Of a DNA stretch of 64,000 nt, positions 1-51,465 are shown one piece after another. The stretch is from Pseudomonadota bacterium (GTDB lineage: Bacteria > Desulfobacterota > Binatia > UBA9968). The DNA lies in NCBI GenBank assembly GCA_021324155.1, contig JAJPJQ010000038.1, positions 83,904 to 147,903 on the forward strand, read 5' to 3'. The notes beneath the pieces are model-generated. The model was not told the DNA's origin. It searched no databases and worked only from the letters and a program-made list of their open reading frames with translations. The number at the start of each line of letters is the position of its first letter. The first letter of the stretch is position 1. The translations under genes and the position numbers were made by a program.

Positions 1-60
1 TACGCGAGCGAAACAAACGGGTTAGATTTCCCAAGGCATAAAACTCACTTCCGGCGCCGC

Positions 61-99
61 TTGACACGGATTAATGTCCCTGATACTGGTCTGACCAGT
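61..99 (+). promoter_or_regulatory. Putative promoter (-35 TTGACA at 61-66) with a FadR/GntR-type operator palindrome ACTGGTCTGACCAGT at 85-99 overlapping the -10 region
   Basis: Perfect 7-1-7 inverted repeat CTGGTC-T-GACCAG resembling the E. coli FadR operator consensus. It lies 13 nt upstream of the GntR/FadR-family gene start (113), and TTGACA is 18 nt upstream of the palindrome. Confidence 0.45.
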
Positions 100-112
100 A
101 GACAGCTAGACC

Positions 113-850
113 ATGTTGCGGGCTATTCGGAAGACCCGGATTTACGAAGAGGTCGTGAGCCAGATCCGCGACCTCCTGCGCGAGGGCCGGTACAAGGCAG
201 GCGATCAGCTGCCGTCCGAGCGCGAGCTCGCCGAGACGTTCAAGGTCAGCCGCACGTCGGTGCGCGAGGCGCTCCGCGCCCTCGAAGCGCAGGGATTGAT
301 CGAGAGCCGCACCGGCGCCGGCAATTTCATCGCCGAGCTCCCGGTCGAATCGCTGGTCGCGCCGCTCGCGTCGCTGCTGCTGGAAGAGAAGGACGCGCTC
401 GCGGACATTTTCGAGATGAGGAAATTGATCGAGCCGCGCATCGCTTCACTCGCCGCCGAGCGCGCGACCAAAGACGATATCGAGCTGATGACGAAAATCC
501 TCGACAAGCAGCGTGACGCCGTGGCGCGCGGCGAGACCGGCGTGGAAGCCGACGCGGAGCTCCACTACGCGATCGCGCGCGCGACCCAGAACCACGCGCT
601 CGAGAAGCTCGTCACCGGCCTGATGGACGTGCTCAGCCACAGCCGCGAAGAATCGCTCCAGCCGCAGGACCGCCGCGAGGCGTCGATCGAATCGCATAGC
701 AAAATCGTCGCCGCCATCGCCGAGCACAACAAGGCGAAGGCGCGCGAAGCGATGCTCAAGCATATCGAGCGCGTCGAAGAGAACGTGCTCTCCGCAAAAA
801 AACCCCCGGCTTATACCGACGGTTCCATAGACGAGAGGAGGATTTCATGA
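113..850 (+). CDS. GntR-family transcriptional regulator, FadR subfamily (N-terminal wHTH plus C-terminal FCD domain)
   Basis: 245-aa ORF. The N-terminal sequence is of GntR HTH type and is followed by a helical FCD-like C-terminal half. The stop overlaps the next start (ATGA). Confidence 0.85.
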   Translation: MLRAIRKTRIYEEVVSQIRDLLREGRYKAGDQLPSERELAETFKVSRTSVREALRALEAQGLIESRTGAGNFIAELPVESLVAPLASLLLEEKDALADIFEMRKLIEPRIASLAAERATKDDIELMTKILDKQRDAVARGETGVEADAELHYAIARATQNHALEKLVTGLMDVLSHSREESLQPQDRREASIESHSKIVAAIAEHNKAKAREAMLKHIERVEENVLSAKKPPAYTDGSIDERRIS

Positions 851-2046
851 TCAAGAGAGTCGAAGTTCAGTACCGCGGGATATTTCAAAAGAATCTCGCG
901 AAAAAAATCGGCAGCGACATCGTCATGATCGCGAGCAGCATGGGCCAGCGGGCATTTTCCAACGGCCGCTACAGCGACGCGCCCGAGCGCAACGGCATCC
1001 CGTGCAAATACTTCGCGTTCGTCTCGCCCGATTTATCCGAGGAGGAACTGGAAGCGGAGTGCGGCGCCAAGCTCGAGATCGACGAGGCGAACGTCTCGGT
1101 CGTGCTCGACGACACGATGTGCAAAGGCGTCGAGCCCTGGGGCTGGCACGGCGTGCGCCCGATCAACGAGCGCGTCGTCAAAGACGGCTGCCTCGTCGTG
1201 ATCACCAAGCGCCCGCACGAGGAGCTGCTCCAGTTCATCGGCAAGAAACCTTACAATTACCGCCTGGCGACGCTCGACGGCGAGGCGAGCCTCGCGGGCC
1301 TGTGGGTCAACAAGGACGATCTCACGTACGAGCACGTGCTCGGAGCGATCGCGGCGGTCGAGCCCACGATCATCAGCATCGAAGCGGTCGAAGCCTATCT
1401 GATGAAGAAGACGAAGGATAAGAAACGCGCCGAGGCGGCGCGCGCCGCCTACAACTCGCTGCGCCAGGAGGCCAAGCCGCCGCGCGTGAAGACCGTCACG
1501 CCGAATGAAGGGATCGTATGGACGCACGAGATCCCGGTGCTGCCGAAATGGTTCGAGATGCAAGAGGGCGCCGTCGTCCCGGCCGTCCCGCGCGGCTTCC
1601 AGATGGGGCCGAAGGGCCAGTCGAGAAACACGGGCTTCAAGCGCGGCACGACCAAGACGCAGCGTCCTGCGGTGCGCTTCGACCTCTGCACCAAATGCAC
1701 GCTCTGCTGGGCGGAGTGCCCCGACGAATGCTTCGACCCGACCACCGACGGCTATTACGATATCGAATATCAGTACTGCGTCGGCTGCGGCAAATGCGCC
1801 GAGGTCTGCCCGGTCAAGGAATGCATCGTCATGGTCGACGAGCTCCAGTTCCACGACAACAACAGTCCGTGGGAAGATTGGAAGAAAGACCCCAAGACAT
1901 ACATCACTTCGCTTGAGGCCAAAAAAGGCACAGAGCGCGTCAACTATCCCGTGGTCACCGGCAAAGGCGTTATCGTGACTAAGGGGGAAGTGATGCCCGA
2001 AGGTAAGATCGTTCCGGTCCGCAAGACCGAGGAGGTGGAAGTATGA
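847..2046 (+). CDS. 2-oxoacid:ferredoxin oxidoreductase gamma subunit fused to delta (2x[4Fe-4S] ferredoxin) subunit
   Basis: 399 aa. N-terminal POR/KOR gamma-like domain. C-terminal CTKCTLCWAECP...CVGCGKCAEVCP double CxxCxxCxxxCP ferredoxin motifs. ATGA overlaps with flanking genes. Confidence 0.8.
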   Translation: MIKRVEVQYRGIFQKNLAKKIGSDIVMIASSMGQRAFSNGRYSDAPERNGIPCKYFAFVSPDLSEEELEAECGAKLEIDEANVSVVLDDTMCKGVEPWGWHGVRPINERVVKDGCLVVITKRPHEELLQFIGKKPYNYRLATLDGEASLAGLWVNKDDLTYEHVLGAIAAVEPTIISIEAVEAYLMKKTKDKKRAEAARAAYNSLRQEAKPPRVKTVTPNEGIVWTHEIPVLPKWFEMQEGAVVPAVPRGFQMGPKGQSRNTGFKRGTTKTQRPAVRFDLCTKCTLCWAECPDECFDPTTDGYYDIEYQYCVGCGKCAEVCPVKECIVMVDELQFHDNNSPWEDWKKDPKTYITSLEAKKGTERVNYPVVTGKGVIVTKGEVMPEGKIVPVRKTEEVEV

Positions 2047-3284
2047 CCGTCACAATGGAAAAACCTAAAAGCGGCATGAGCGACGGCGTCTACGAGCGCG
2101 AGGAGCTGCTCAATGGCTGTCAGGCGGTCGCGCAGGGCGTGTGCCTCGCCGACGTCGACGTGATCGCGGCCTACCCGATCCGGCCCTACACCGAGGTCAT
2201 GGACGCGCTCTCGAAGCTGATCGCCGACGGCGCGTTCGACGCCGAGTACATCATCGCCGACAGCGAGCACTCGCAGTTCGAGATTGTCAAGCATGCCTCC
2301 TCGGTCAACGCGCGCGCCTTCGGCGGCTCGAGCGGCACCGGCTGGATGTACGGCATGGAGGCGCTCACCGTTACGGCGACCGACCGCCTGCCGCCGATGT
2401 TCGTCGTCGGCAACCGCGCGCTCGACGATCCCGGCGCGTTCGGCGTCGAGCACAACGACGCGATGGCGGTGCGCGATCTCGGCTGGCTGCTCTGCTGGGT
2501 CACGACGCCGCAGGAAGCCCTCGAGCACGTGCTGATCGGCTACCGCGTCGCCGAGGACAAGAACGTGCGCATGCCGATGGCGCTCGCTATCGACGGCGCG
2601 TTCCTCACCCATTCGCAGCACATCGTGAAGATTCCCTCGGTCGCGGCGGCGAAGAAGTTCCTGCCGCAATACGACCTCGCCGAGCGCCGGCTCCATCCCG
2701 ACAACCCGATCTCGGTCGCCCCGCAGGCGAACGAGGATTGGGTCATGGAGATCCGCCGCCAGAACTGGGAGGCCGCCAAGCGCGCCCGCGGGGTCATCAA
2801 GGAAGCCTACAAGGAATTCAACGCGATCTTCGGCGAGCGCTACGCGCAGCCCTACTTCGACGAGTACATGACCGACGACGCCGAGACCGTGTTGATCGGC
2901 GTCGGCACCGTCGCGGCGCCGGGCCGCACCGCGGTCAAGCGGCTCCGCGAAAAGGGCCACAAGGTCGGCTACGTGAACCTCCGCTGGTTCCGCCCCTTCC
3001 CGACCGAAGAGCTGCGCGCGTGTCTCAGCCGCTTTAAATCGGTCGGCGTCGTCGACCGCGACTTCGCCCACGGCTCGCCCGACAACTGCGGCATCCTGAT
3101 GCACGAGATCCGCTCGTGTCTCTATCCCGCGAAGAACCGTCCCGCGATCGTGAACTTCATCGGCGGCCTCGGCGGGCGCGATCTTTCGATCGCCGACGCG
3201 CAGAAGATGTTCGACATCACGGCGCAGGCGGCGAAGAAAGACTCGATGGACGGGTATATTACCTGGATCGGCCTCAGAGAGTAG
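2043..3284 (+). CDS. 2-oxoacid:ferredoxin oxidoreductase alpha subunit
   Basis: 413 aa. The N-terminal region resembles POR/KOR/VOR alpha subunits. Operon context with gamma-delta and beta genes. Confidence 0.85.
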   Translation: MTVTMEKPKSGMSDGVYEREELLNGCQAVAQGVCLADVDVIAAYPIRPYTEVMDALSKLIADGAFDAEYIIADSEHSQFEIVKHASSVNARAFGGSSGTGWMYGMEALTVTATDRLPPMFVVGNRALDDPGAFGVEHNDAMAVRDLGWLLCWVTTPQEALEHVLIGYRVAEDKNVRMPMALAIDGAFLTHSQHIVKIPSVAAAKKFLPQYDLAERRLHPDNPISVAPQANEDWVMEIRRQNWEAAKRARGVIKEAYKEFNAIFGERYAQPYFDEYMTDDAETVLIGVGTVAAPGRTAVKRLREKGHKVGYVNLRWFRPFPTEELRACLSRFKSVGVVDRDFAHGSPDNCGILMHEIRSCLYPAKNRPAIVNFIGGLGGRDLSIADAQKMFDITAQAAKKDSMDGYITWIGLRE

Positions 3285-3298
3285 TGTAAGGAGGACTT

Positions 3299-4294
3299 AT
3301 GACAACCACTCCAAAAATCGATTACGAAAAGATCAAAGGCGTCCACAAGGTCCCGCTGGAAGAGCTCTACACCTCCGGCCACCGCACCTGCCAGGGCTGC
3401 GAGTCCGCGACGACCATGCGGGGCTTCATCAAGGCCTCGGGACCGCGCACGATCGTAACCGGCGCGACCGGCTGCATGTACGTCGCCAATACTTCGTACC
3501 TGACCACGCCGTGGATCGTGCCGTGGATGCACACCCAGCTCGGTGCGGGCGGGGCGTCCGCGGTCGGCATGGCGGCGGGCGTCCGCGCGCTCCAGCGCAA
3601 GGGCAAGATCAAGCAGGAGAAGATTAACATCATCAACTTCTCCGGCGATCTCGGCGCGGGCGACATGGGCATCGGCGGAATCTCGGGCGCGCTCCAGAGC
3701 GACTACGACCTGCTGATCATCATGTACGACAACGAGTCGGCGGCGAACACCGATATCCAGGCGACCGGACTCTCGATCTACGGCGCGCAGACGACGTTCA
3801 CGCCGCCCGGATCGAAGCACCGCATCATGCAGCGGCGCTGGAAGAAGAACGTCGCCGGCATGCTCGCGGTCGGCCACCCGACTTGCAAGTACGTCGCCAC
3901 CGCCTGCGCGACGTTTCCGCCGACCGACTATCTCAACAAGACGCGCAAGGCGCTCAGCATCGGCGGGCCGACGTTTATCCATACGTACGATCCATGCCCG
4001 AAGGGCTGGGACTATCACCCGCGCTATTCGAACGAGCTGGGCGAACTGGGCATCAAGTGCGGCATCTACCCGCTCTACGAGATCGTCGAAGGCAACGTCA
4101 TTTACACCTGGGACGCGCGGAAATCGGGCAAGGGCCGCATTCCGGTGAAGGAGTTCCTGCAGCGCCAGGGACGCTTCGAGCATCTGATCCAAGAGGACAT
4201 CGATTATATCCAGAAGGGCGTCGACGAGATGTGGGAAGAGTGGGAAATTCCCGGCGTCGCGCCGCTCAAGGGGATTTTGAAAGCCAGAATCTAG
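3299..4294 (+). CDS. 2-oxoacid:ferredoxin oxidoreductase beta subunit (TPP-binding)
   Basis: 331 aa. The motif GDLGAGDMGIGGIS is of the TPP/Mg-binding GDG type, and the N-terminal Cys cluster (CQGCESATT) is typical of OFOR beta. RBS TAAGGAGGA upstream. Confidence 0.85.
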   Translation: MTTTPKIDYEKIKGVHKVPLEELYTSGHRTCQGCESATTMRGFIKASGPRTIVTGATGCMYVANTSYLTTPWIVPWMHTQLGAGGASAVGMAAGVRALQRKGKIKQEKINIINFSGDLGAGDMGIGGISGALQSDYDLLIIMYDNESAANTDIQATGLSIYGAQTTFTPPGSKHRIMQRRWKKNVAGMLAVGHPTCKYVATACATFPPTDYLNKTRKALSIGGPTFIHTYDPCPKGWDYHPRYSNELGELGIKCGIYPLYEIVEGNVIYTWDARKSGKGRIPVKEFLQRQGRFEHLIQEDIDYIQKGVDEMWEEWEIPGVAPLKGILKARI

Positions 4295-4547: not shown

Positions 4548-6344
4548 ATGAACTACTTCCAACCCTATTCCCTTCCGGCCGATCAGGCGGTCCTCGCCGC
4601 GTGGGATTCGCAGCTCGCGGAGCTGGCGGAATGTCCGGCGCTCGTCACCGCGCTGGCGAAGCACCGCGAGATGCTCCCGCGCTTCGCGGAATCTTACATG
4701 AGACTCCGCGCGCTGCCGCGCGGCACGCGGCGGGCGCTGCAAAGAAAGCTCGCACGAGCGCGCGAGTTAATTTCAATTCAACCGGAGTGGCAGAGAAAGC
4801 TCGCCGGCTCACTCGCCGGCGCGGCGCTACTGCTCGCGCTCGCGCAGAGCGCGTCCGCGACGACGATGACCGTCACGACGAATGTGCCGGACATCAAAAG
4901 AGACAAGAAATGTTCACTGATCGAAGCGATTATCAATGCAAAGAAGCATAGGCGAGTTCACACCGACTGTCCCGCCGGGAGCGGAACAGACACGATTGTG
5001 CTTCCCGGCAATACGGTTTTCACATTCAACAAGATGGAACCCAGTTACATTCAAAGCTACAACGGTTTACCGACTGTCACCAGCATCATCACGATCGAAG
5101 GGAACGGCAGCACGCTCAGAAGAAATAGCAAATCGCAATTTGGCCTCGTCGATGTGAATAGCACTGGAAATTTAACGCTTAAGAATCTGACGATAAGTAA
5201 TTGGCAAGATCAGAATTTCAGCGCGATAACGAACCGCGGAAAACTGACAATCGTCAGTAGTACTATCTCCGGCAACATGGGATATGAAGGCGGCGCGATA
5301 TACAACTCATCCGGCGCCATTGCGGCGATCGAGAATAGCACAATTTCTGGCAACAGTGCCCGTCGTGGTGGAGGGATTCATAATTACCGCGGTACCATAA
5401 TCATAAACAACAGCTCAATTTCCCAAAACACAGCGGCATTTTCAGGCGGAGGCATAAGGAATGTCGGCGGTCACGCCGAAATCAATAACAGCATTATAAG
5501 CGAGAATCGCGCAATAGCACCGAAATATTACTCCGGCCATGGGGGTGGTATCGACAATATCGGTACCGCTGCGTATCTGCTTATCACATACAGTTCAATT
5601 GCTGAGAATCTCGCCAGTGGAGGCATCAGAAGTACGAATAAATATCGGCCGAGGCCAGCTGGTGAAGGCGGCGGAATATACAATGGCTTCCGATCGACCG
5701 TGACGATCAGCAATAGCTCAATCTTTAGCAATACCGCGGAGACCCCAGTCAACGGCTACATTGCGAGGGGCGGTGGGATACTTAGTAGTGCCGGTGGAGA
5801 TCTGCGCATTTCAAATTCTACGGTATCCGGAAACACTGCGATCAGCGGTGTCCCGGCAAAAGCTTACGGCGGCGGGATTTTCAGCTGCGTTTTTCAAATT
5901 ACGAGCAGCACAATTGCGGACAACAGAGCAAATGTTGGCGGCGGAATCTGGAGTTGTGAAAGTTCTTCACGCCTAGAGTTAGCCCGCAGTATTATTTCCG
6001 GAAATCAAGCTGACAAGGGAGCCGAGGTCCATAACGGCTTCTCTAGTTCGTCGAAACAACACCTTGCCGTAAACAATTTTAATCTGTTTGGAAACAATGG
6101 CGATCCCGGCGTTGTAGGTGTTACTCCAGGAGCATCCGACATCGTGCCCGGCTCCGGGATAATGCTCGATGACATCATTGCGCCGCTCGCAGACAACGGC
6201 GGCCCCACTCTAACGCATGCTCTTGCGGCCGGCAGCCTCGCCATCGATGCCGCGCCGGTCGACTCCGATTGTCCAGCTACCGATCAGCGCGCAACACCGC
6301 GACCGCAAGGCGGCGGCTGCGATATCGGTGCGTTTGAGAAGTAG
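4548..6344 (+). CDS. Surface/secreted right-handed parallel beta-helix repeat protein with CSLREA-type motif and C-terminal choice-of-anchor-Q-like domain. It carries an unusual ~85-aa N-terminal domain followed by a hydrophobic segment (paralog 1)
   Basis: 598 aa. RBS AAGGAG. Segments in order: N-domain (MNYFQPYSLPADQAVLAAWDSQLAEL...), hydrophobic LAGSLAGAALLLALAQSASA, CSLIEAI (CSLREA-like) motif, many NSTISGN/NSSISxN beta-helix repeats, and a C-terminal LADNGGPTLTHAL...CPATDQRATPRPQGGGCDIGAFE tail. Confidence 0.8.
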   Translation: MNYFQPYSLPADQAVLAAWDSQLAELAECPALVTALAKHREMLPRFAESYMRLRALPRGTRRALQRKLARARELISIQPEWQRKLAGSLAGAALLLALAQSASATTMTVTTNVPDIKRDKKCSLIEAIINAKKHRRVHTDCPAGSGTDTIVLPGNTVFTFNKMEPSYIQSYNGLPTVTSIITIEGNGSTLRRNSKSQFGLVDVNSTGNLTLKNLTISNWQDQNFSAITNRGKLTIVSSTISGNMGYEGGAIYNSSGAIAAIENSTISGNSARRGGGIHNYRGTIIINNSSISQNTAAFSGGGIRNVGGHAEINNSIISENRAIAPKYYSGHGGGIDNIGTAAYLLITYSSIAENLASGGIRSTNKYRPRPAGEGGGIYNGFRSTVTISNSSIFSNTAETPVNGYIARGGGILSSAGGDLRISNSTVSGNTAISGVPAKAYGGGIFSCVFQITSSTIADNRANVGGGIWSCESSSRLELARSIISGNQADKGAEVHNGFSSSSKQHLAVNNFNLFGNNGDPGVVGVTPGASDIVPGSGIMLDDIIAPLADNGGPTLTHALAAGSLAIDAAPVDSDCPATDQRATPRPQGGGCDIGAFEK

Positions 6345-6363
6345 CGTCCTGGGGGAGAGGGGT

Positions 6364-8457
6364 ATGTATTATCACAGTGCTTATCGACTGCCTGCCGGCG
6401 AGACAATTATTACAGCCTGGGAATCGGCACTAGCTGACCTGCGAAACAGCGCGCCGTCTTTAAATCTGCCGGCTGAAACACCTGATGTCTTTCCTCGGTT
6501 CGCTCAAACCTATGTAAAACTATGCAACTTACCTCGAAAAAAGCGAAGAGAGATCCAAAGGGATATTCTCCATACCGGACCGTTGGCAAAAATCCAACTC
6601 AAATCACAACGTCAACTTGCATCATCTTTGGCGGCAGTCGCTCTATTGCTTGCTTTAGCTCAACCCGCCCCCGCAGCAAACATTGCCGTCAATACGAACA
6701 CACCCGCAATTAATGATGGAGACGGTAAATGTTCGCTCATCGAGGCAATCATTAATGCCAACGACGATGCCTCGACTCATCCCGATTGCGCAAAGGGCGA
6801 AGGAGCGGATGTCATTGTATTGCCCGCTGCGAGTATACACGTCGTCGAAGCTGCTTACGGCAATTATCAGGGTGAAACCGCGCTGCCGGTGATAACGAGC
6901 GAGATTACTATCGAGGGGAATAACAGCACGGTGACCCGCCACGTGAGCGAGCCATTGTTTCGTATTTTAGCTGTGCGTAGTGTCGGAAGACTTACACTAC
7001 AAAATTTAACGGTAAGCGGCGGAGCTCAAAACCATGGCGGCGGGATATTCAACAGTGGCACGCTAGCGATTACTAACAGCATTATCACAGGGAACAAAGC
7101 ACAGTATTTTGGTGGAGGTATATTCAATTCCTCCGACGGAGAATTGACAATTGAGACTAGCAGCCTGTCCAAGAATATCGCCAACATGGATGGTGGCGGT
7201 CTATTGGACTGTTACGGTAGTTTCAAGATACAGAACAGTACTATCTCAGGTAACTTCAGTCAGCGTGGTGGCGGCATCCATAAGTTTGATAATCAAATAG
7301 AATACGTCACCCCCACATCTAACTTCCCAAAGTGCAGCGTAACCTCGCACACGGGACTGATTGTTAACAGCACAATTTACGGCAATACCTCATCCGTCGG
7401 CGGCGGCATAGCCAATGGTGGCAAAATAACCATCATCAACAGCACAATCAGCAATAATGTAGCGCTGGCGCAAGGCGGCGGAATCATAAATTATAAACCC
7501 TTCCAAGGTGCTCCCAGTTATCTTTTCGTAGAAAGCAGCACGATTTCTCAGAACATTGCCGGTGACGAGCATTTCGGCTGGGGTGGCGGCATTATGAATC
7601 AATACAATGGCTATCTTTATCTAAGCCGCAGCATCGTCTCAGGTAACAAGGCGCTCACAGGGCCAGAAATAAAAACGGCTAGTGTGAACGATGTTGTTTA
7701 TATCGATGATTTTAATCTTCTTGGAAATAACGGCGACAGCGGACTGTACAATGTATATGTCGGCTACACGGATATTGTCCCTAAACAAAGCCTCAACAAA
7801 ATTCTCGGCCCCCTCAAAAATAACGGCGGCCCTACACTGACTCATGCTTTAGTTCCTGGCAGCCCCGCGTTGGACGCTGCGCCGGTCGATGCGAACTGCC
7901 CGGCGACCGATGGCCGCGGTGTTGCCCGCCCGCAAGGGTCTGCATGCGATATGGGCGCCGTTGAGGGTACTAGTTTGGCACCGGCGCCCCACCCGACCGG
8001 GCACAACTTCGTCGTAAGCTCCGTCAAGGCGCCGAAAACCATCAAGAACGGCGGCGGCACTGCTCCCGTAGCGGTCACGATTCGGAACGCAGGCAATCAA
8101 AACGAGATACTGAGCGATGCGTCCGTGCTCGGCGACGGCGCGACCACGGGCCTCGTCCGCCTGGCGATCGACGTCACCGATACCGACGGCGAGCAATGCC
8201 AGCCTGCGACTGTCTCTTTAGACGGCTCCAAGAATGGGAAGCTCTTCAGCAAGGGAGTGAAGGTCTTGTCCGGCGGCGCATCGTTGACGGTGAATTTTCT
8301 CGTGACGTACCGTTGCGACGCGCCGATGAACAAGCGAAATCCGGAAGCGGGCGACTACCGTAACAGCGCCTCGATATTTCCCGACGAGCTCGACGGCATT
8401 TCCGATTCTAACGCGAGCAGCACAATGGTCGGCGCCGCGACCAAGGTGACGCCATGA
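6364..8457 (+). CDS. Beta-helix / CSLREA / choice-of-anchor-Q-like protein with an extra C-terminal CARDB-like Ig domain (paralog 2, diverged)
   Basis: 697 aa from an ATG with RBS GGGGAGAGGGG. It has the same architecture and a conserved N-domain (MYYHSAYRLPAGETIITAWESALADL...PRFAQTYVKL). An extra ~180-aa C-terminal tail (VSSVKAPKTIKNGGGTAPVAVTIRNAGN...) is CARDB-like. Confidence 0.75.
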   Translation: MYYHSAYRLPAGETIITAWESALADLRNSAPSLNLPAETPDVFPRFAQTYVKLCNLPRKKRREIQRDILHTGPLAKIQLKSQRQLASSLAAVALLLALAQPAPAANIAVNTNTPAINDGDGKCSLIEAIINANDDASTHPDCAKGEGADVIVLPAASIHVVEAAYGNYQGETALPVITSEITIEGNNSTVTRHVSEPLFRILAVRSVGRLTLQNLTVSGGAQNHGGGIFNSGTLAITNSIITGNKAQYFGGGIFNSSDGELTIETSSLSKNIANMDGGGLLDCYGSFKIQNSTISGNFSQRGGGIHKFDNQIEYVTPTSNFPKCSVTSHTGLIVNSTIYGNTSSVGGGIANGGKITIINSTISNNVALAQGGGIINYKPFQGAPSYLFVESSTISQNIAGDEHFGWGGGIMNQYNGYLYLSRSIVSGNKALTGPEIKTASVNDVVYIDDFNLLGNNGDSGLYNVYVGYTDIVPKQSLNKILGPLKNNGGPTLTHALVPGSPALDAAPVDANCPATDGRGVARPQGSACDMGAVEGTSLAPAPHPTGHNFVVSSVKAPKTIKNGGGTAPVAVTIRNAGNQNEILSDASVLGDGATTGLVRLAIDVTDTDGEQCQPATVSLDGSKNGKLFSKGVKVLSGGASLTVNFLVTYRCDAPMNKRNPEAGDYRNSASIFPDELDGISDSNASSTMVGAATKVTP

Positions 8458-10000
8458 ACTACTTCCAGCCCTACTCTCTTCCGGCCGATCAGGCGGTCCT
8501 CGCCGCGTGGGATTCGCAGCTCGCCGAGTTAGCGGACTGCCCTGCTTTCGTCAATGCCCTCGCGAAGCAGCGCGAGTTGTTCCCGCGCTTCGCGGCGCAC
8601 CACGCGCGCCTGCGGGTGCTGCAGCGCGGCACGCGCAGAGCGCTGCAAAGAAAGCTCGGCGAGCGCATGAGCTGATTTCAATTCAACCTGAATCGCAGAG
8701 AAAGCTCGCCGGCTCACTCGCCGGCGCGGCGCTGCTCCTCGCGCTCGCGCAAAGCGCGAGCGCGGCGACAATCAACGTAACGACAAACATCCCCGACATC
8801 AACGACGGCGACGGCAAGTGCTCGCTGATCGAGGCGATCGTTAATGCGAACGACGACGCAGCGACGCATCCCGACTGCGTCACGGGAGACGGGGCGGACA
8901 CGATCGTGCTGCCGAAGAAAGCTAAATTCAATTTTTTCGTAGCAACGATAAAGACACCGATTACAATTCAGGGCAACGACAGTACCTTCGTTCGAACAAC
9001 ATTGACGGTAAACGCTTCGGGAGATTTCAACGTAGATGGGATCAGCGTACTAGGTGGCAAGCGTTGCTTTATAAACGTTGGCGTCCTGACGATCGAGAAC
9101 AGCAAAATTTCAGGCTGTGCATTTGCCAGCGCAGGTGCAGTTTTCAACGGAGGGACTGCCACTATTTCCAACAGTGTTATTTCAGGAAACAAAGCGTATG
9201 GGAATGGCGAATATTCCTGGACAGGAACCGGCGGAGCAGCAATAAATAGCGGCACAATGACGATCCTGAACAGCGAGATATCCGACAACGCGGCGTACGG
9301 GAATGATTTTGGCAGCGCCATTGGCGGCGGCATCGATAATCAGGCTGGTACTCTTATCATTCAAAATAGCACCATAGCTAGGAATCTGGCTATTTCCCAT
9401 TCTCATGATGCTATTGGCGGTGGCATAAGCAATTCGGGCCGTTCATATTTGAGTGTTCGAAACAGCACAATTTCAGGCAACGAAGTGTCCAGAGGGAAGA
9501 GCCGCGGCGGAGGTGTTAACAATTGGGGATATCTTCACGTAGAAAATAGCACGATTACTGGGAATTCAGCCTCTACAGGAGGCGGCGTCGTCAGTTTCAG
9601 TTACGGCCGACCGAACCTCGTCTACCTACGCGAGAATGTTTTCGCTAACAACGAAGCTATCGTTGGTCGGGAAATTTCTACAGATGCCGTAATACAATAC
9701 GATGTTCTGAATTTATTGGGTATTAACGGTGATTCAGGTGTCTACGGCTTCACGCCTGGACCAACCGACATAGTGCCAAACGTTGCGGTTAAGAAAATCC
9801 TTGCTTCCCTAAAAAATAACGGCGGCTCTACCCTCACCCACGCTCTCGTCAAGGGCAGCCCCGCCATCGATGCCGCTCCCGTCGATGCGAATTGTCCGGC
9901 AACCGATCAGCGCGGCGTGGCGCGGCCGCAGGGAGGCGGCTGCGACATCGGCGCGGTGGAGTACACGGGCAAAACCTCGAAGAAGAACAAGAATAATTAG
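8454..10000 (+). pseudogene. Third beta-helix/CSLREA paralog, disrupted by a frameshift between the N-terminal domain and the hydrophobic segment
   Basis: The ATG at 8454 overlaps the paralog-2 stop (ATGA). A 73-codon ORF (8454-8675) encodes an N-domain near-identical to paralog 1. The rest of the protein (ELISIQPESQRKLAGSLAGA...CDIGAVEYTG) continues in another frame, ORF 8507-10000. The region is 1 nt shorter than the paralog-1 counterpart between AAAGAAAGCTCG and ATTTCAATTCAACC. Confidence 0.6.
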
Positions 10001-10866: not shown

Positions 10867-12390
10867 TTATCCGTGCCCGATCGCGGGCTCGATGGTCGGC
10901 GGCTGACCGCGCAGGCGTCGCCACCACGGCGTGATGATCGGCATGACGAAGAAGAAGATCGCGGCGAAGGTGATCGCGGCGGAGATCGGGCGCGAGAAGA
11001 AAATCCCCAGAGACCCCTGCGACATGATGAGGCTCTGACGGAGCGCGTTCTCGGCCAGGTCGCCGAGCACGAGCGCGAGCACGAGCGGCGCGAGCGGGTA
11101 ATCGAGCTTCTTGAACACGTAGCCGATCACGCCGAAGATCAGCATGTACCAGATGTCGATCATGCTGTTGTGCACGGCGTAGCTGCCGATCGCGCAGACG
11201 ACGACGATGAGCGGCGTCAAGACCGCGAACGGGATGCGCAGGATCGCCGCGAAGAACGGCACGAACGCGAGCACCATCAGGACGCCGATGATGTTGCCGG
11301 TGTACATGCTCGCGATCAGCCCCCAGACGAAGTCCGGCTTTTCCTTGAACAGCAGCGGGCCGGGCTGAAGCCCCCAGATGATCAGGCCGCCAAGCATGAC
11401 CGCCGCGGTCGGCGAGCCGGGTATGCCGAGCGTGATCATCGGCAGCATCGCCGCGATACCGGCGGAGTGCGCCGCAGTCTCCGGCGCGACCACGCCCTCC
11501 AGCTCGCCCTTGCCGAACTTCTCCGCATTCTTCGAGAAACGCTTCGCGAAGGCGTAGCTCATGAACGAGGCGGGCGTCGCGCCGCCGGGCTTGAAACCCA
11601 TCCAGAAGCCGATGAAGGCGCTGCGTACGAACGTGCGCCAGTAGCGCGGTAGGAGCTTCCAGGTATCGAGGACGACTTTCGGATTGATCTTCGTCTTGAC
11701 GCCCTGGAAGCTGAGGCCCTCCTCGACGCTCAGGAGAATCTCGCCGATGCCGAAGAGCCCGATGACCGCGACGATGAAATCGAAGCCCTTCATCAGGTCC
11801 GTGAAGCCGAAGGTGAGGCGGAGCTGCCCGGTGACGATGTCGAGGCCGACCGCCGCCAGGATGAAGCCGAGGACGATCGAGACGAGCGACTTGAGCGGAT
11901 TGCCGCCGCCCAGGCCGACGAAGCTCGAGAACGTGAGCAATTGGATCGCGAAGAACTCCGGCGGGCCGAAGCGCAGCGCGATCTCGGCCAGCAGCGGAGC
12001 GAACAGCGTAATGAGCACGATCGCGAAGAAGGCGCCGATGAAGGACGAAGTGAACGCGCCCGTGAGCGCCGGCCCGCCCTGCCCTTGCCGCGCCATCGGG
12101 TAGCCGTCAAACGTGGTCGCGACCGACCACGGCTCGCCGGGGATATTGAACAGGATCGAGGTGATCGCGCCCCCGAAGAGCGCGCCCCAATAAATCGAGG
12201 TCAACAGAATGATCGCCGACGTCGGCGGCATGGTAAACGTGACGGGCAGGAGGATCGCCACGCCGTTAGCGCCGCCGAGGCCGGGCAGCACGCCGATGAT
12301 GGTGCCGAGCGTGATGCCGACGACCGCGACGAACAGATTGAACGGCGTGATCGCGATGTGAAAACCCATCCAGAGGTTTTCAATGCCCAT
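10867..12390 (-). CDS. tctA: Tripartite tricarboxylate transporter large permease TctA
   Basis: 507 aa, polytopic, TctA family. Operon with tctB/tctC. Confidence 0.9.
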   Translation of the reverse strand: MGIENLWMGFHIAITPFNLFVAVVGITLGTIIGVLPGLGGANGVAILLPVTFTMPPTSAIILLTSIYWGALFGGAITSILFNIPGEPWSVATTFDGYPMARQGQGGPALTGAFTSSFIGAFFAIVLITLFAPLLAEIALRFGPPEFFAIQLLTFSSFVGLGGGNPLKSLVSIVLGFILAAVGLDIVTGQLRLTFGFTDLMKGFDFIVAVIGLFGIGEILLSVEEGLSFQGVKTKINPKVVLDTWKLLPRYWRTFVRSAFIGFWMGFKPGGATPASFMSYAFAKRFSKNAEKFGKGELEGVVAPETAAHSAGIAAMLPMITLGIPGSPTAAVMLGGLIIWGLQPGPLLFKEKPDFVWGLIASMYTGNIIGVLMVLAFVPFFAAILRIPFAVLTPLIVVVCAIGSYAVHNSMIDIWYMLIFGVIGYVFKKLDYPLAPLVLALVLGDLAENALRQSLIMSQGSLGIFFSRPISAAITFAAIFFFVMPIITPWWRRLRGQPPTIEPAIGHG

Positions 12391-43300: not shown

Positions 43301-43965
43301 AGGTGCCTTCCCACGAGATAGAGCAGCGGAAAAAGAAAGATCCAGATGAGATCGACGAAATGCCAATACAGGCCCGTGAGTTCGATCGGCGTGTAGTAAA
43401 TCGGCGAGAAACGCTTCCGCCGCGCCTTCAGCGCCATCCAGGTCAACAGCCCGATGCCGATGATCATGTGCAGCGCGTGCAGGCCCGTCATCGCGAAATA
43501 AAGCGAGAAGAAGATTTCCGCGGGGTGCGCGTGCGGCCCCTCGAAGCGGAACGCCGGGCCCGGAACGAGGTGCTCGACGAATTTTTCATGATATTCGTAA
43601 AATTTGACGCCGAGAAACACCGCGCCGAGCAGCATCGTCAGCAGCAGATATCGGATCGCCGCCTTGTTCCTCCCCGTTTCCCCGCCGTGGACCGCCAGCG
43701 CCATCGTGAAGCTGCTCGAGATCAGCACCGCCGTGTTGATCGCGCCGAGCGTGACGTCGAGACGATTGCTGGCCGCGGCGAACGCATTCGGAAAGCCGAC
43801 GCGGTAAAACGCGTAGGCCGCGAACATACCGCCGAAGAACATCACCTCGGTCGCGAGGAACACCCACATGCCGAGCCAGGATGCATGGTGCTGCTGCTCG
43901 ACGTCTTCGAACTGATGCGCGCGCACCTCGAATGCGTCAGGCGCGGCTGGGACTGCCGAATTCAT
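43297..43965 (-). CDS. coxC: Cytochrome c oxidase subunit III
   Basis: 222 aa. RBS GAGGAG. Classic subunit III sequence. Confidence 0.85.
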
Positions 43966-45568
43966 AAGTCTCCTCGGGTTCTTTGTCGTAGGCGTAGGCT
44001 TCGGCGACGACGCGCGGCGTGACGTCGAAGTTGTGCGTCGGCGGCGGCGACGGCGTCTGCCACTCCAGCCCCCTCGCCCCCCATGGATTGCGGCCCGCGA
44101 CCCGGCCGTAGCGCAGCGACCAAATGAGATAAATCAGCGGCAGCACGTAACCCACGGCGAGAATCGACGCGCCGGCGGACGACATCACGTTCAATGCCTG
44201 GAATTCGGGCGGATAGGCGTGATAGCGCCGCGGCATGCCGAGATAGCCGAGCACGAACTGCGGGAAGAAGGTGAGATTGAAGCCCAGAAACACAATCAGC
44301 GCGGCGACCCGCGCGACCGGCTCGGGATACGTTCGGCCGGTCATCTTAGGCCACCAGAAATGAATCCCCCCGAGATAGGCCATGACCGAGCCGCCGACCA
44401 TGATGTAGTGAAAATGGGCGATAACGAAGTAGGTGTCGTGGACGTGGACGTCGACGCCGATCGACGCGAGGAACAGGCCGGTCAGGCCGCCGATCGTGAA
44501 CAGGCCGATAAACCCGAGCGCGTAGAGCATCGGCGCGTCGTAGGAGATCGAGCCGCGGTGCAGCGTCGCGGTCCAGTTGAAAACCTTGATCGCCGAGGGG
44601 ATCGCCACGAGAAAGCTGAGCAGCGAGAAGATGAGTCCGGCGTGCACCGACTGGCCCGCGACGAACATGTGATGGCCCCAGACGAGAAAGCCGATCACCG
44701 CGATGGCGAGGCTCGAGAACGCAACGAACGAATAGCCGAAGACGCGCCTGCGCGCGAAGGCCGTGACCAGCTCGCTCTCCACGCCCATCGCCGGCAGCAC
44801 CATGATGTAGACCGCCGGGTGCGAGTAAAACCAAAAGAGATGCTGGAAGAGCACGGGATCCCCGCCGCGAGCGGGATCGAAGAAGCCGAGATTGAAGACG
44901 CGCTCGAGGCCGACGAGCAGCAGCGTGATCGCGATCACCGGCGTGCCGAGGATGAAGATGATGCTGGTCGCATAAATCGCCCAGATGAACAGCGGCAGGC
45001 GAAACCAGGTGAGGCCGGGCGCGCGCATCTTGTGAATGGTCACGACGAAATTGAGCCCCGTCAGAATCGACGAGAAGCCCGTGACGAAAACACCGACGAC
45101 CGTCAGCGCGACGTGCGAGTTCGAGTAAATGCTGCTGTACGGCGTATAGAACGTCCAGCCCGTGTCGACGCCGCCGGCCGCGGCGGAGGCGAGTGTAAAC
45201 AAGCCGCCGAGGATGAAGATGTACCAGCTCGCCAGGTTCAGCCGCGGGAACGCGAGATCGCGCGCGCCGACCATCATCGGCACGAGGAAATTTCCCAGCA
45301 CGGCCGGGATCGACGGAATCAGGAAAAAGAAAACCATCGTCACGCCGTGCATGGTGAAAAACTTGTTGTACGTCTCGGCCTGCACGAGATCGCCTTGCGG
45401 CGTCATCAGCTCCAGACGGATGAGCGTGGCAAAAAAACCGCCGAAGAAGAAAAACAGCGTCACCGACAGGAGATATAGCCACGCGATGCGCTTGTGATCG
45501 GTCGTAAAAAGCCACGACCGGATGCCGTAGTCGACGTTCAGATAATGTACCTGGGGCGCGCCGTTCAT
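43937..45568 (-). CDS. coxA: Cytochrome c oxidase subunit I (heme-copper oxidase catalytic subunit)
   Basis: 543 aa. Classic subunit I sequence. ATGA overlap with coxB. Confidence 0.95.
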
Positions 45569-46515
45569 TTCGCCGCCGTCCTTTCTTGCTGGCTGAGCGA
45601 TTTGATGTAGGCAATCAGCTGCAGAATGCCCTCCTCGCTCACGAGACCTTTAAACGTCGGCATCACCGGCTGGAACCCCGCGACGATCTTCGCCTGCGGG
45701 TCGAGGATCGACTCGCGGATGTAGCCCTCGTCCGCCACCGCGCTTTTGCCGTCTTGCAGCTTCACGGTCTTGCCGAACAGGCCCGCAAGCGACGGGCCCT
45801 GGCTGCCGCCCTCTGATTTGTGGCACGTGGCGCAGCCCAGACGCTGAAAGAGATTCTGTCCGGCTTGCGCCGCCGAGACGCCGGTAGCACCGCCGCCGAG
45901 CCATTGCTGATAATCGGCCGGGGTCATCGCGATGACGCGCCCGAGCATGCCGGAGTGCTGCGCGCCGCAGTATTGTGAGCAGCGAATAGGGTACTCTCCT
46001 TCTTTGGTAGCCTCGAACCATGCGGTCGTATACCGGCCGGGGACGACGTCCATCTTCATCCTGAACTCGGGAACGAAAAAACTGTGGATCACGTCCTCGG
46101 ACGTCATCGTGAGCTTCACCGGGCGCCCGACGGGCACGTGGAGCTCGTCGATCTCGCGCTGTCCCTCGGGATGCTGGAGCTTCCACATCCACTGGCGGCC
46201 GACCACGGCGATGTCGATCGCGCCTACCGGCGGCTGGGTCTGATCGAGAAAGATCGACGCGCCCCAGAAAAATAAAACCATCGTGATACCGAAGGGCACC
46301 GCGGTCCAGAAGATTTCGAGCGCGATACTCGCGTCGATCGACACGCCGCGCTCGTATCCGGGCCGCCGCCGGTACTTGACCGCGAAATAGACGATGAGAA
46401 ACGCGATCAGGAGGCCGAAGAAAAGCGAGAGCGCGATGAGGAAAAAGAACAGCGCGTCGACGCGCGGCGCCATCGTCGAGGCCTGCTGCGGAAACAGCGG
46501 TAGGTTCTGCCACAT
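45565..46515 (-). CDS. coxB: Cytochrome c oxidase subunit II with fused C-terminal cytochrome c domain (caa3-type)
   Basis: CuA site [12 protein letters not shown] and a heme c site CATCH in the C-terminal extension. Confidence 0.9.
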
Positions 46516-46527
46516 CGTCGATCTGTT

Positions 46528-47364
46528 CTATCCGGGGCGCCGCGAAATTTCGGCGCGCAGCGACAGCGCGATGAACGCGCCGAGAGCGAGCACGGTCGCG
46601 ATCGTCGCGCCGCGCAGTACGTTCGTGACCATAAGAGTGTATTTTCCGGTCGCCGGGTCGTAGTGGTAGCAAAACAGCAACAGCTGATCGATCGCCTTGC
46701 CGATTTTTCCGTCCGAAGCTTCCAGCAAGCCCAGGCGCAGATCGCGCGGCGAAAATTCGATACCGTAAAAATAGCGGGCGAAGCGGCCTTGCGGCGTCAG
46801 CAGCATGATTCCCGTCGCGTGCGCGAAGCGATCGTTGTCGCTTTCGTAGTTGTAGCGAAAGCCCGCCGCCGCGGTGATGCGGTTTATCGAGGCTTCGCCG
46901 CCGGTTAAAAAATGCCAGCCGCTCCCGGCGCCGGGGCGGCCGTAGCGCTGGACGAGGTCGTCTTTTTTCGCGGCGGCGAGCGCCGGCGTATCCTGCGGAT
47001 CGAAGCTCACGTTGACAATCTCGAAATCTTTTCCGGCGGTAAACGACATCGCGCGCAGCGTCCGCAGCACGCCGTCGAGGAGCAAGGGACAAAGGTCCTG
47101 GCAGCGGTAATACGCGAAGGTCAAGATGACCGGGCGCGCGCCGAAGTAGTCGCCGAGCCTCACGCTTTTGCCGGTCTCGTCGCGAAACTCGGCATCGAGC
47201 GGCGCCTGTTCGCCGAGCTTCTGGTCGAGCGCCACGGCTTTGAGCGCCAGCGGCCGCCCATCGTCGTGCGCGTGCGCGGGGACGATGAAAAGCAAAGTGA
47301 GTAGTGAACAATGCGCCGTGAGCAGCAAAATCTTTCGTATTCGCATCTTCATGGCCGATTTCAT
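46528..47364 (-). CDS. SCO1/SenC copper chaperone for cytochrome oxidase assembly
   Basis: Thioredoxin-fold CQDLCP motif, N-terminal TM anchor. Confidence 0.8.
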   Translation of the reverse strand: MKSAMKMRIRKILLLTAHCSLLTLLFIVPAHAHDDGRPLALKAVALDQKLGEQAPLDAEFRDETGKSVRLGDYFGARPVILTFAYYRCQDLCPLLLDGVLRTLRAMSFTAGKDFEIVNVSFDPQDTPALAAAKKDDLVQRYGRPGAGSGWHFLTGGEASINRITAAAGFRYNYESDNDRFAHATGIMLLTPQGRFARYFYGIEFSPRDLRLGLLEASDGKIGKAIDQLLLFCYHYDPATGKYTLMVTNVLRGATIATVLALGAFIALSLRAEISRRPG

Positions 47365-50091: not shown

Positions 50092-51465
50092 CTATTTTTC
50101 CGATTCCTCGTGCAGCAGGCCGCGCATCTCGAAAATAGAGATCATGGGCAGAAGCCGCACGAAAACGAACATGAGCGCGAGAAACAAACCGATCGTTCCC
50201 GCAAACACCGCGTAATCCCAGATCGTGCCGGAATACATGCCCCACGCCGACGGCATGAAATCGCGCGAGAGGCTTACCACGACGATCACGTAGCGCTCGA
50301 GCCACATGCCGACATTGACGCAAATCGCGATGATAAACAGCGCGAGCGGACTGGTACGCACGCGCAGGATCCAGAGTGCTTGCGGAATCACGATGTTAAA
50401 CAGGAGCAGCGCCCAAAACATGTAACGGTAAGCGCCGTGCATGCGGTAAAACATGAGATAGCGCTCGAACGGGCTGCCGCTGTACCACGAGACGAATCCT
50501 TCCATCATGTAGCCGTACGCCACGATCAGCCCCGTGGCGAGCATAACCTCGCCCATGTTCTTCAAATGGCGCAGCGTGATGAAGTCTTCGAGCCCGTACA
50601 TCTTGCGCAGCGGAATCGCGAGCGTGAGCACCATGGCAAAACCCGAGTAGATCGCGCCGGCGACGAAGTACGGCGGGAAAATAGTCGAGTGCCATCCGGG
50701 CACGAGACCGATGGTGAAGTCGAAGCTCACGACCGTATGCACGGAGACCACTAGCGGCGTCGCGAGTCCCGCGAGCAGCAGGGACGCGGTCTCGTAGCGG
50801 TGCCAATGGACCGCCGAGCCGCGCCAGCCCATCGCCAGCATGCCGTAGGCGAAGCGCGGAAAGCGCTTGCGCGCGCGGTCGCGCAGCGTGGCGAGGTCGG
50901 GAATGAGGCCCACGTACCAGAACAGCAGGGAGACCGTGAAATACGTGGAAACCGCGAAGACGTCCCACACCAGCGGACTCCTGAACTGCGGCTGGATATC
51001 CATCGTACTCGGATATGGGAAAAGCCAGTAGAAATACCACGGGCGCCCGAGATGCAGCAGCGGGAAGAGTCCAGCGCACATGACGGCGAAAATCGTCATC
51101 GCCTCGGCGAAGCGGTTGATGGAATTGCGCCATTTCTGCCGGAGCAACAGCAGGATCGCCGAGATCAGCGTGCCGGCATGTCCGATTCCGATCCACCAGA
51201 CGAAATTGACAATCGCGAAGCCCCACGCGACCGGAATATTGATGCCCCAAATGCCGACACCCTTAGTTAACAGATAGCTGACGGCGAAAAGAAGAATCAG
51301 CACGAACACAAACGAGATCCCGAAGCCCACGTACCAGAGCATAGGCGTGGGCCGGGTGAGCACGATGGCGCTGATCTTATCGGTGATCGAAGCGTAGGTA
51401 TGGCCCGGCTCGATGACGGGAGCGATCTCTTCCGATGCCAGTATTTTATCGACTTCGTCAGCCAT
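50092..51465 (-). CDS. actC: Alternative Complex III subunit ActC (NrfD/PsrC-like quinol-interacting membrane subunit)
   Basis: Start at internal ATG MADEVDKIL, sharing 1 nt with the actB stop (TAATG). Confidence 0.8.
   Translation of the reverse strand: MADEVDKILASEEIAPVIEPGHTYASITDKISAIVLTRPTPMLWYVGFGISFVFVLILLFAVSYLLTKGVGIWGINIPVAWGFAIVNFVWWIGIGHAGTLISAILLLLRQKWRNSINRFAEAMTIFAVMCAGLFPLLHLGRPWYFYWLFPYPSTMDIQPQFRSPLVWDVFAVSTYFTVSLLFWYVGLIPDLATLRDRARKRFPRFAYGMLAMGWRGSAVHWHRYETASLLLAGLATPLVVSVHTVVSFDFTIGLVPGWHSTIFPPYFVAGAIYSGFAMVLTLAIPLRKMYGLEDFITLRHLKNMGEVMLATGLIVAYGYMMEGFVSWYSGSPFERYLMFYRMHGAYRYMFWALLLFNIVIPQALWILRVRTSPLALFIIAICVNVGMWLERYVIVVVSLSRDFMPSAWGMYSGTIWDYAVFAGTIGLFLALMFVFVRLLPMISIFEMRGLLHEESEK

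Follow-up and report, generated by a model that had tools for sequence, protein, structure and literature searches.

The palindrome considered here lies in the promoter of a GntR-type regulator gene near the beginning of a 64,000-nucleotide stretch, hereafter the window, of contig JAJPJQ010000038.1 from a Binatia bacterium. The regulator gene (113–850, + strand) encodes a protein of 245 residues with a GntR winged helix-turn-helix and an FCD domain, and it heads an operon for a 2-oxoacid:ferredoxin oxidoreductase (OFOR). Read 5' to 3', the promoter region is composed of CGCCGC, the hexamer TTGACA (61–66, + strand), CGGATTAATGTCCCTGA, the palindrome TACTGGTC-T-GACCAGTA (84–100), GACAGCTAGACC and the ATG of the regulator gene at 113. 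The hexamer was read in the sequence as the −35 element of a sigma-70-type promoter, and its TTGAC is conserved in relatives. A candidate −10 element (82–89, + strand) overlaps the left arm of the palindrome. It can be taken either as GATACT (82–87) with a 15-nt spacer or as TACTGG (84–89) with a 17-nt spacer and a TG before it at 81–82. At 85–99, ACTGGTCTGACCAGT forms a perfect 7+1+7 inverted repeat, which grows to the 8+1+8 repeat TACTGGTCTGACCAGTA at 84–100, the strand-neutral predicted core operator with its centre at 92. Its conserved core, TGGTCNGACCA, occupies 87–97. A conserved extension, AGACAGCTAGACC (100–112, + strand), continues from its right end to the start codon. The first-pass annotation of this DNA had placed the palindrome (85–99) between a −35-like hexamer (61–66) and the start codon of the regulator (ATG, 113–115), and both the order and all of these coordinates were right when read in the sequence.

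The same annotation had described the stop codon of the regulator gene as ATGA-coupled to an OFOR operon, which is indeed the arrangement present. The TGA of the regulator gene (848–850) overlaps the ATG of the next gene (847–849) in an ATGA at 847–850 (+ strand), and three OFOR subunit genes follow. The first (847–2046, + strand) encodes a gamma/delta fusion subunit of 399 residues with two [4Fe-4S] motifs and the Pfam domain Fer4_21. It overlaps the second by a further ATGA at 2043–2046. The second gene (2043–3284, + strand) encodes the alpha subunit, which has 413 residues, the domains POR_N and PFOR_II, and a place in an oxalate oxidoreductase (OOR)-like clade. The last gene of the operon (3299–4294, + strand) encodes the thiamine pyrophosphate (TPP)-binding beta subunit of 331 residues (TPP_enzyme_C). 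In about 19 related loci, one coordinate marks both where the regulator gene ends and where the gamma/delta gene begins. A strong Shine-Dalgarno sequence, GAGGAGG (835–841, + strand), stands 5 nt before the ATG of the first OFOR gene, and none is visible upstream of the regulator gene in the window (101–115) or in relatives. From this pair of observations we infer that the repressor may be kept low relative to the enzyme.

Palindromy by itself was rejected as evidence for a binding site, because perfect 7+1+7 palindromes occur in the window at the chance rate (9 observed against 8.6 ± 2.6 expected from Markov simulations). The signal of the site comes instead from its content, position and conservation. 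The pattern TGGTNNNACCA (TGGT-N3-ACCA) is present in a single copy on both strands of the 64 kb, with 0.20 expected, and this sole copy sits within the 112 nt upstream of the GntR gene. No second copy of the 15-mer ACTGGTCTGACCAGT was found in the window, even at three mismatches. For the comparison with relatives, a scan with one genome per species gave 80 loci encoding relatives of the regulator, mostly metagenome-assembled genomes (MAGs) labelled Candidatus Binatia or 'Deltaproteobacteria'. Fifty-three distinct promoters were aligned on the palindrome centre (window 92 = position 0). The positions T−5 G G T C−1 and G+1 A C C A+5 carry 1.8–2.0 bits each, so that T-G-G-T-C-N-G-A-C-C-A is invariant or nearly so, and the spacer between the −35 and −10 elements carries almost no information. 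TTGAC is kept in nearly all related promoters. Of 57 promoters, 34 have its first base 31–32 nt before the centre and most others 34–36 nt before it, and in 49 of them the best −10 element begins 10–13 nt before the centre. The promoter of the Nitrospinota locus L053 reads TTGACT-16-TATAGT with the −10 overlapping the left arm, that of L182, a 33% GC organism, reads TTGACA-17-TATAAT followed directly by ACTGGTCTGACCAGT, and that of the Methylomirabilis MAG L064 reads TTGACC-17-AAGAAT a few bases ahead of the operator. The operator thus stands directly beside the predicted −10 element or overlaps it and lies over the likely start site, which in the window is predicted at about 90–97. This is the position of a repressor site.

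Exact copies of TGGTCNGACCA were found at regulator promoters only in the 851 kb made up by the window and the related loci. One-mismatch matches elsewhere in these 851 kb number about 10, and about 24 would be expected by chance according to our estimate. Because the exact core occurs at regulator promoters only, the site is not a dispersed repeat, and an element of the repetitive extragenic palindromic (REP) or miniature inverted-repeat transposable element (MITE) type was rejected on this ground and by the count of one copy in the 64 kb. A widespread repeat unrelated to the regulator had been named beforehand as the finding that would speak against an operator, and it does not hold across the 851 kb. 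The proposal of an operator for the adjacent regulator in its own promoter is supported by the near-invariant core of the 53 promoters and by the restriction of its exact copies.

The extension at 100–112 is conserved as strongly as the palindrome itself and near-invariant in the 53 promoters. Its GAC triplets at 101–103 and 109–111 lie exactly 8 and 16 bp past the GAC of the right half-site (93–95). GAC therefore recurs at +1, +9 and +17 with an exact 8-bp period and without any insertion or deletion, and A+8 G A C A G+13 and G+17 A C+19 (C+20) are almost invariant. No insertions or deletions occur between −7 and +20, while the stretch separating +20 from the ATG differs in length among the promoters, by as many as about 8 bases. 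Therefore, the extension is fixed to the operator and promoter rather than to the start codon. Similarly phased repeats appear in more distant lineages as well. Four further GTAGACGG-like units follow in Nitrospinota L053, and the repeats read GACCAATGGACCATT in Armatimonadota L061, GGACCATTAGAACC in Acidobacteriota L056 and GGACCACCGGACC in Methylomirabilis L064. L182, whose regulator is 38% identical, has GACCAGT-AGATAAGT-AGACATAA, and other distant FCD promoters have flanking half-sites at 9–10 bp. This otherwise unexplained element would probably consist of accessory half-sites that recruit more regulator, which is the hypothesis we favour. An RNA element or attenuator was rejected as the nature of the promoter element. 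It has no Rfam match, the RNA fold is no better than that of shuffles (z = +0.32), no terminator-like site and no T-tract was found in window 1–800, and the symmetric flank positions −6 and +6 show no covariation in the related promoters.

The assignment of the regulator to the FadR subfamily of GntR proteins stands, as both of its domains are above their Pfam cut-offs. The GntR domain (PF00392) covers residues 11–73 with an E-value of 5.8e-24 and 84 bits (cut-off 27), and the all-helical FCD domain (PF07729) covers residues 98–219 with 2.1e-29 and 102.9 bits (cut-off 24.3). The operator, TGGT-CTG-ACCA at 87–97, fits the motif TKGT-N3-ACMA that is common to FadR, PdhR, LldR, GlcC, DgoR and ExuR (PMC4494728). 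The palindrome had been said to match the E. coli FadR consensus almost perfectly. The core CTGGTCNGAC is indeed a perfect match; the outer positions do not match, so the description was overstated, and 11 of the 14 specified positions agree with the consensus as it was written there (ANCTGGTCNGACNTGTT). Nor is the likeness specific to E. coli FadR, since the motif is generic to the subfamily and the regulator is nearer to NanR, LldR and PdhR. The best NCBIfam matches are NanR (subfamily model NF003011, 147.9 bits, cut-off 260), LldR (143.6 bits) and PdhR (equivalog NF007001, 125.2 bits, cut-off 330), all under their cut-offs. The FadR equivalogs NF003444 and TIGR02812 gave 43.8 bits (cut-off 189) and 40.2 bits (cut-off 249.2). 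Membership of the FadR, PdhR, LldR or NanR family was rejected because all scores are below the curated cut-offs. No NCBIfam model names this regulator family, and JGI labels its homologs 'repressor for pyruvate dehydrogenase complex'. Pfam reported FCD and gave no FadR_C match. The nearest solved structures are 6az6, the LldR-like 2di3, NanR and PdhR, and FadR structures match only at E ~1e-4 (about 2.5e-4). The residues D147, H151, H195 and H217 align with the Zn ligands D172, H176, H222 and H244 of NanR, and R103 and R178 align with Arg128 and Arg203, which contact N-acetylneuraminic acid (Neu5Ac) in NanR. All six are invariant in 20 orthologs. Because these metal ligands and arginines align and stay invariant, the effector domain appears to be built for carboxylates, with a metal in its pocket, rather than for acyl-CoA.

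The OFOR is related to OOR. The alpha subunit scores 334 bits against the Moorella OOR structure 5c4i and 199 bits against the next solved OFOR. The best NCBIfam matches of the beta and gamma/delta subunits are OOR beta (321.9 bits, cut-off 590) and OOR delta (88.8 bits, cut-off 230). The N-terminal 250 residues of the gamma/delta subunit match no Pfam family and show weak NCBIfam matches to PorC-type gamma subunits (E ~1e-5). PMC5020499 describes the YPIRP motif (Arg31 of alpha) as unique to OOR and Asp116 of alpha as the catalytic residue of the switch (plug) loop. Every related alpha subunit whose motif region aligned has YPIRP (YPIRPYT in the window, residues 44–50). The switch loop (residues 125–140) reads RALDDPGAFG, where OOR has RTLDPPGDFG, and the altered form is strictly conserved in the clade. 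As the subunits miss the OOR cut-offs and the switch loop differs, the window OFOR is, on sequence grounds, part of a large sister clade of OOR. About 50 loci of Binatia, Nitrospinota, Acidobacteriota and Armatimonadota share the gene order regulator, gamma/delta, alpha, beta, and with it the promoter and operator. The genes flanking or downstream of these four differ between relatives. Therefore, the four genes make up a self-contained cassette.

The regulator and this type of operator co-occur across at least five phyla and with three downstream gene sets, of which the OFOR cassette is one. Another is found in seven loci (L028, L035, L040, L043, L045, L047 and L049), whose regulators are 62–72% identical and stand behind the same promoter and operator. 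Their operon, about 0–6 kb downstream, encodes a TPP enzyme, formyl-CoA transferase (Frc) and an ADP-forming CoA ligase. The TPP enzyme has 571 residues and belongs to the acetolactate-synthase/oxalyl-CoA-decarboxylase family, and the Frc match to TIGR03253 scores 668.6 bits (cut-off 504.2). A divergent open reading frame (ORF) for 574 residues accompanies the operon in L028, L035 and L043, with an ORF of the same size and position in the truncated locus L051. It was confirmed as a NuoEF-like diaphorase in L035 only, where a formate dehydrogenase alpha gene follows (TIGR01591, 807.3 bits, cut-off 666.25). The third gene set was found in the Methylomirabilis MAG L064 (3998–10398), in which a 45%-identical regulator and the same type of operator head an OOR operon. 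This OOR passes the curated cut-offs (alpha 584 against 500, beta 598.1 against 590, delta 244.2 against 230 bits) and has the Moorella-type loop. The gene between regulator and OOR in L064 encodes a CDC48-like AAA ATPase, and its reading as the CoA ligase of the frc loci was rejected. The regulators of all three contexts have in common the signature SRExSLQ (window residues 177–183, including R178), which is absent from five outgroup FCD regulators. The three gene contexts have no metabolite in common other than oxalate, which is therefore the best effector candidate. We regard it as the most likely effector of the regulator, with slightly better than even odds; formate, glyoxylate and pyruvate are the alternatives.

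The scheme that we propose for binding, repression, the extension and the effector is a prediction drawn from the sequence features, conservation, gene order and domains described above. The palindrome at 84–100 would be the core operator through which the adjacent GntR/FCD regulator represses its own operon, and a small carboxylate, most likely oxalate, would act as the inducer. We give this reading a probability of roughly 0.8. A regulator dimer would sit on TGGTC-N-GACCA over the −10/+1 region and block RNA polymerase. In this way a single transcript would be repressed, on which the regulator gene is followed by the three OOR-like OFOR genes, coupled in translation. The GAC repeats of 100–112 would probably serve as accessory half-sites, so that more regulator is bound down to the start codon. 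Oxalate most likely, and in any case a small carboxylate, would bind to the metal site of the FCD domain and to R103 and R178, lower the affinity for DNA and cause induction. Induction would also renew the repressor, the first cistron of the operon. With the repressor encoded at the head of the operon that it would control, the circuit is expected to be negatively autoregulated, as in E. coli pdhR-aceEF-lpd. The idea of an autoregulated regulator-OFOR operon under metabolite control, put forward in the first-pass annotation, is borne out as far as comparative sequence evidence reaches.

The assignment of the palindrome to the adjacent regulator as a repressor site can be questioned in two ways. 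The palindrome could have arisen by chance, form an RNA hairpin or attenuator, belong to a dispersed repeat or be the site of an unlinked factor. The chance frequency of 7+1+7 palindromes in the window fits such a view, and so does the occurrence of the 15-mer in unrelated metagenome contigs, in some of them within tandem repeats (L156, L142). However, the site is invariant in the 53 promoters while the flanking spacer drifts, its exact copies in the 851 kb are confined to regulator promoters, and it accompanies the regulator gene in different phyla and ahead of differing downstream genes. The hairpin and attenuator versions are further weakened by the missing T-tract, Rfam match, exceptional fold and −6/+6 covariation. 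We therefore consider this explanation very improbable. Alternatively, the regulator could bind the site as an activator or dual regulator rather than as a simple repressor. Some proteins of the FadR subfamily, including FadR itself, activate certain promoters. In every lineage examined, however, the site covers the predicted start and coincides with the −10 element or follows it closely, which is the position of a repressor, and because the −35 element is the consensus TTGACA the promoter does not look activator-dependent. Activation is thus unlikely, though less so than a site that does not belong to the regulator.

With the same operator and the same autorepression, the signal could come from a small acid other than oxalate, for which pyruvate, glyoxylate, glycolate, lactate and formate are examples. 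In that case the regulator would be a sensor like PdhR, LldR or GlcC, and the substrate of the OFOR would not be oxalate. The JGI label of the homologs as a repressor of the pyruvate dehydrogenase complex and the NCBIfam likeness to NanR, LldR, PdhR and GlcC agree with this, as do the OFOR scores under the OOR cut-offs, the difference from Moorella OOR at Asp116, and formate as a product in the context of frc and formate dehydrogenase. However, every NCBIfam regulator match is far under its cut-off, and the three independent contexts (YPIRP-bearing OOR-like enzyme, Frc alongside a TPP enzyme, and an OOR scoring above the cut-offs) have only oxalate in common, with the SRExSLQ pocket signature running across them. 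Another small acid is accordingly judged possible, with about one chance in four. A genuine FadR-like sensor, which would respond to acyl-CoA or to some other CoA thioester (a class listed beforehand among the effector candidates), hardly fits the data. It draws on the core CTGGTCNGAC, which equals the FadR consensus as first written, and on oxalyl-CoA and formyl-CoA, which are pathway intermediates in the frc-type loci. Against it stand the FadR equivalog scores of 43.8 and 40.2 bits, far below the cut-offs of 189 and 249.2, the lack of a FadR_C match, the E-values of ~1e-4 to FadR structures, and the oxalate gene contexts, of which those with OFOR or OOR have no place for a CoA ester, provided that the enzyme acts as OOR does. 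The regulator also carries a metal-binding FCD domain with a conserved Asp/His3 site and two arginines, and for this reason an acyl-CoA effector is unlikely; we would give a CoA thioester only a very slight chance.

Several observations weigh against repression of this operon by its own regulator with oxalate as the inducer. A simple consensus promoter scan of the window called no promoter, and the −10 element of the window is weak, whether it is read as GATACT with the 15-nt spacer or as TACTGG with the 17-nt spacer. The whole evidence base is comparative and comes from MAGs. Some loci that are 66–87% identical bear the unlikely labels Verrucomicrobiia, Udaeobacter, Pseudolabrys and Eisenbacteria, which suggests binning errors or gene transfer. 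The 15-mer also stands beside many distant FCD regulators, so the core alone does not specify its binder. The window OFOR stays under all three OOR equivalog cut-offs (alpha 375.6 against 500 bits, and beta and delta as given above), and with Ala at the position of Asp116 its substrate may not be oxalate. As for the extension, it could work at the RNA level or bind another factor, and the regulator is without the N-terminal extension that mediates cooperative binding in NanR.

The distant FCD regulators came to light in a metagenome scan with the exact 15-mer ACTGGTCNGACCAGT, which returned 120 loci as an arbitrary sample. Only one of them, L095, has the orthologous context. As a search for further members of the regulon the scan was uninformative, owing to the arbitrary sample and this single context. 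About 18 of the 120 sampled matches adjoin FCD regulator genes that are 27–45% identical to the window regulator. In one such distant promoter (L104, ~500–550) the 15-mer lies inside the perfect nested palindrome GGTCTAACTGGTCGGACCAGTTAGACC. In two others (L120 and L135) it is flanked on either side, at about 10 bp, by additional ACTGGT/ACCAGT repeats. On two unrelated metagenome contigs (L156, ~3712–3770, and L142, 6340–6450) the 15-mer occurs within tandem arrays of GACCAGTC-like units. Among the relatives, Acidobacteriota loci (L056–L063, L065 and L068) have the two strong half-sites about one helical turn further apart (e.g. TTGGTCCGATAACCGGACC) or two tandem pairs, 40–80 nt upstream of the regulator. 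This spacing suggests that a different binding geometry may be used for the same regulator-OFOR cassette.

Among known systems, E. coli PdhR with pdhR-aceEF-lpd is the closest functional analogue. In both cases an FCD-type GntR repressor, a predicted one here, is the first gene of the repressed operon, and the operon is for a TPP-dependent enzyme that oxidises a 2-oxoacid; the inducer is the substrate, again as a prediction here. The operators have the GGT-N3-ACC core in common, and 10 of the 14 specified positions of the PdhR box, AATTGGTnnnACCAATT (PMC7660256), are matched. However, the flank is CTGGTC here and TTGGT in the PdhR box, the regulator reaches 125.2 bits where the equivalog cut-off is 330, and in place of the pyruvate dehydrogenase complex the operon encodes an OOR-type, ferredoxin-linked OFOR. 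Oxalate as the predicted signal and the phased extension are further differences. With E. coli FadR the regulator has in common the GntR winged helix-turn-helix, the GT-N3-AC spacing of the palindrome (PMC4494728) and the core CTGGTCNGAC. It differs in having an FCD domain with a metal site, whereas FadR has an acyl-CoA-binding C-terminal domain. The targets here are not fatty-acid genes, and 11 of the 14 specified positions of the 17-mer consensus agree.

Among the NCBIfam models, that of NanR scores best (147.9 bits), and the Zn ligands of E. coli NanR and its ligand-contacting arginines are kept in the regulator. Three NanR dimers bind to (GGTATA)3 direct repeats spaced by about 8–9 bp (PMC8012715). 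This spacing resembles that of the 8-bp-phased GAC triplets, although protein binding to the GAC repeats is hypothetical. Cooperativity of NanR needs its 32-residue N-terminal extension (PMC8012715). No such extension is present in the window regulator, whose helix-turn-helix begins at residue 11 and whose residues 4–221 align with NanR 26–248. In addition, a true palindromic core exists here besides the repeats, the ligand would not be sialic acid, and the score is under the cut-off of 260. On the enzyme side, the OOR of Moorella thermoacetica (5c4i) is the closest solved relative (334 bits) and has the same three-subunit organisation. YPIRP (Arg31) and Arg109 are kept in the window alpha subunit. 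The two differ in the RALDDPGAFG loop with Asp116 replaced by Ala, in the scores of all three subunits below the OOR cut-offs, and in the haem-copper oxidase carried by the host here.

The neighbourhood of the operon contains further features. The window stretch 4548–10000 holds three consecutive large ORFs for choice-of-anchor Q/beta-helix proteins. Its GC content is 0.52–0.56 against about 0.62 elsewhere, and it is not conserved beside the operon in relatives. In the closest relatives (L081–L083), a tctB-tctA-tctC carboxylate transporter operon and an 83-aa ORF without a Pfam match lie upstream of the regulator, and the window holds another TctA gene 10 kb away (10867–12390, − strand). Co-regulation of the upstream tctBAC was rejected, since no operator site occurs in the 6 kb upstream, and no operator copy was found near the tct genes of L081–L083 or the TctA gene of the window. 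Genes for COX1, COX2 (with a cytochrome c domain) and SCO1 are present at 43937–47364 (− strand), and a gene for a 1014-aa iron-sulfur protein at 51465–54509 (− strand). The organism had been credited with a full aerobic chain. Of that claim, the COX1, COX2 and SCO1 genes are the only support in the window, and they indicate that the organism has at least a haem-copper oxidase beside the ferredoxin-linked OFOR.

The switch itself, a local autorepressor of the FadR subfamily on a TGGT-N3-ACCA palindrome, is textbook. No description of a bacterial oxalate-responsive transcription factor or of an oxalate-responsive GntR protein was found in the literature searched. In that literature the predicted oxalate specificity of the clade, its cross-phylum link to both oxalate routes and the fixed 8-bp-phased extension likewise appear to be undescribed. 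We tentatively suggest, at somewhat less than even odds, that the clade is the first described family of oxalate-responsive bacterial factors, in which oxalate would be chelated by the metal and the two arginines. It would control both known anaerobic-type oxalate routes, one through the OOR-like oxidoreductase and the other through CoA esters with enzymes of the Frc/Oxc type and formate dehydrogenase. The hosts would be mostly uncultured inhabitants of soil and sediment, spread over at least five phyla. The composite operator would consist of the palindrome and two 8-bp-phased half-sites and be occupied by more than one dimer without an N-terminal extension of the NanR type.

Should the predicted oxalate switch prove right, the regulator would be a candidate oxalate sensor with a defined operator, directly usable as a biosensor part. 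The widespread automatic label 'repressor for pyruvate dehydrogenase complex' would be corrected. The phased extension would offer a tractable case for the assembly of multi-part operators by FCD regulators that have no NanR N-terminal extension. The finding would also flag a large conserved sister clade of OOR in Binatia and further phyla of the soil that have aerobic oxidases as well, and this clade would bear on soil oxalate turnover and on the oxalate-carbonate pathway.

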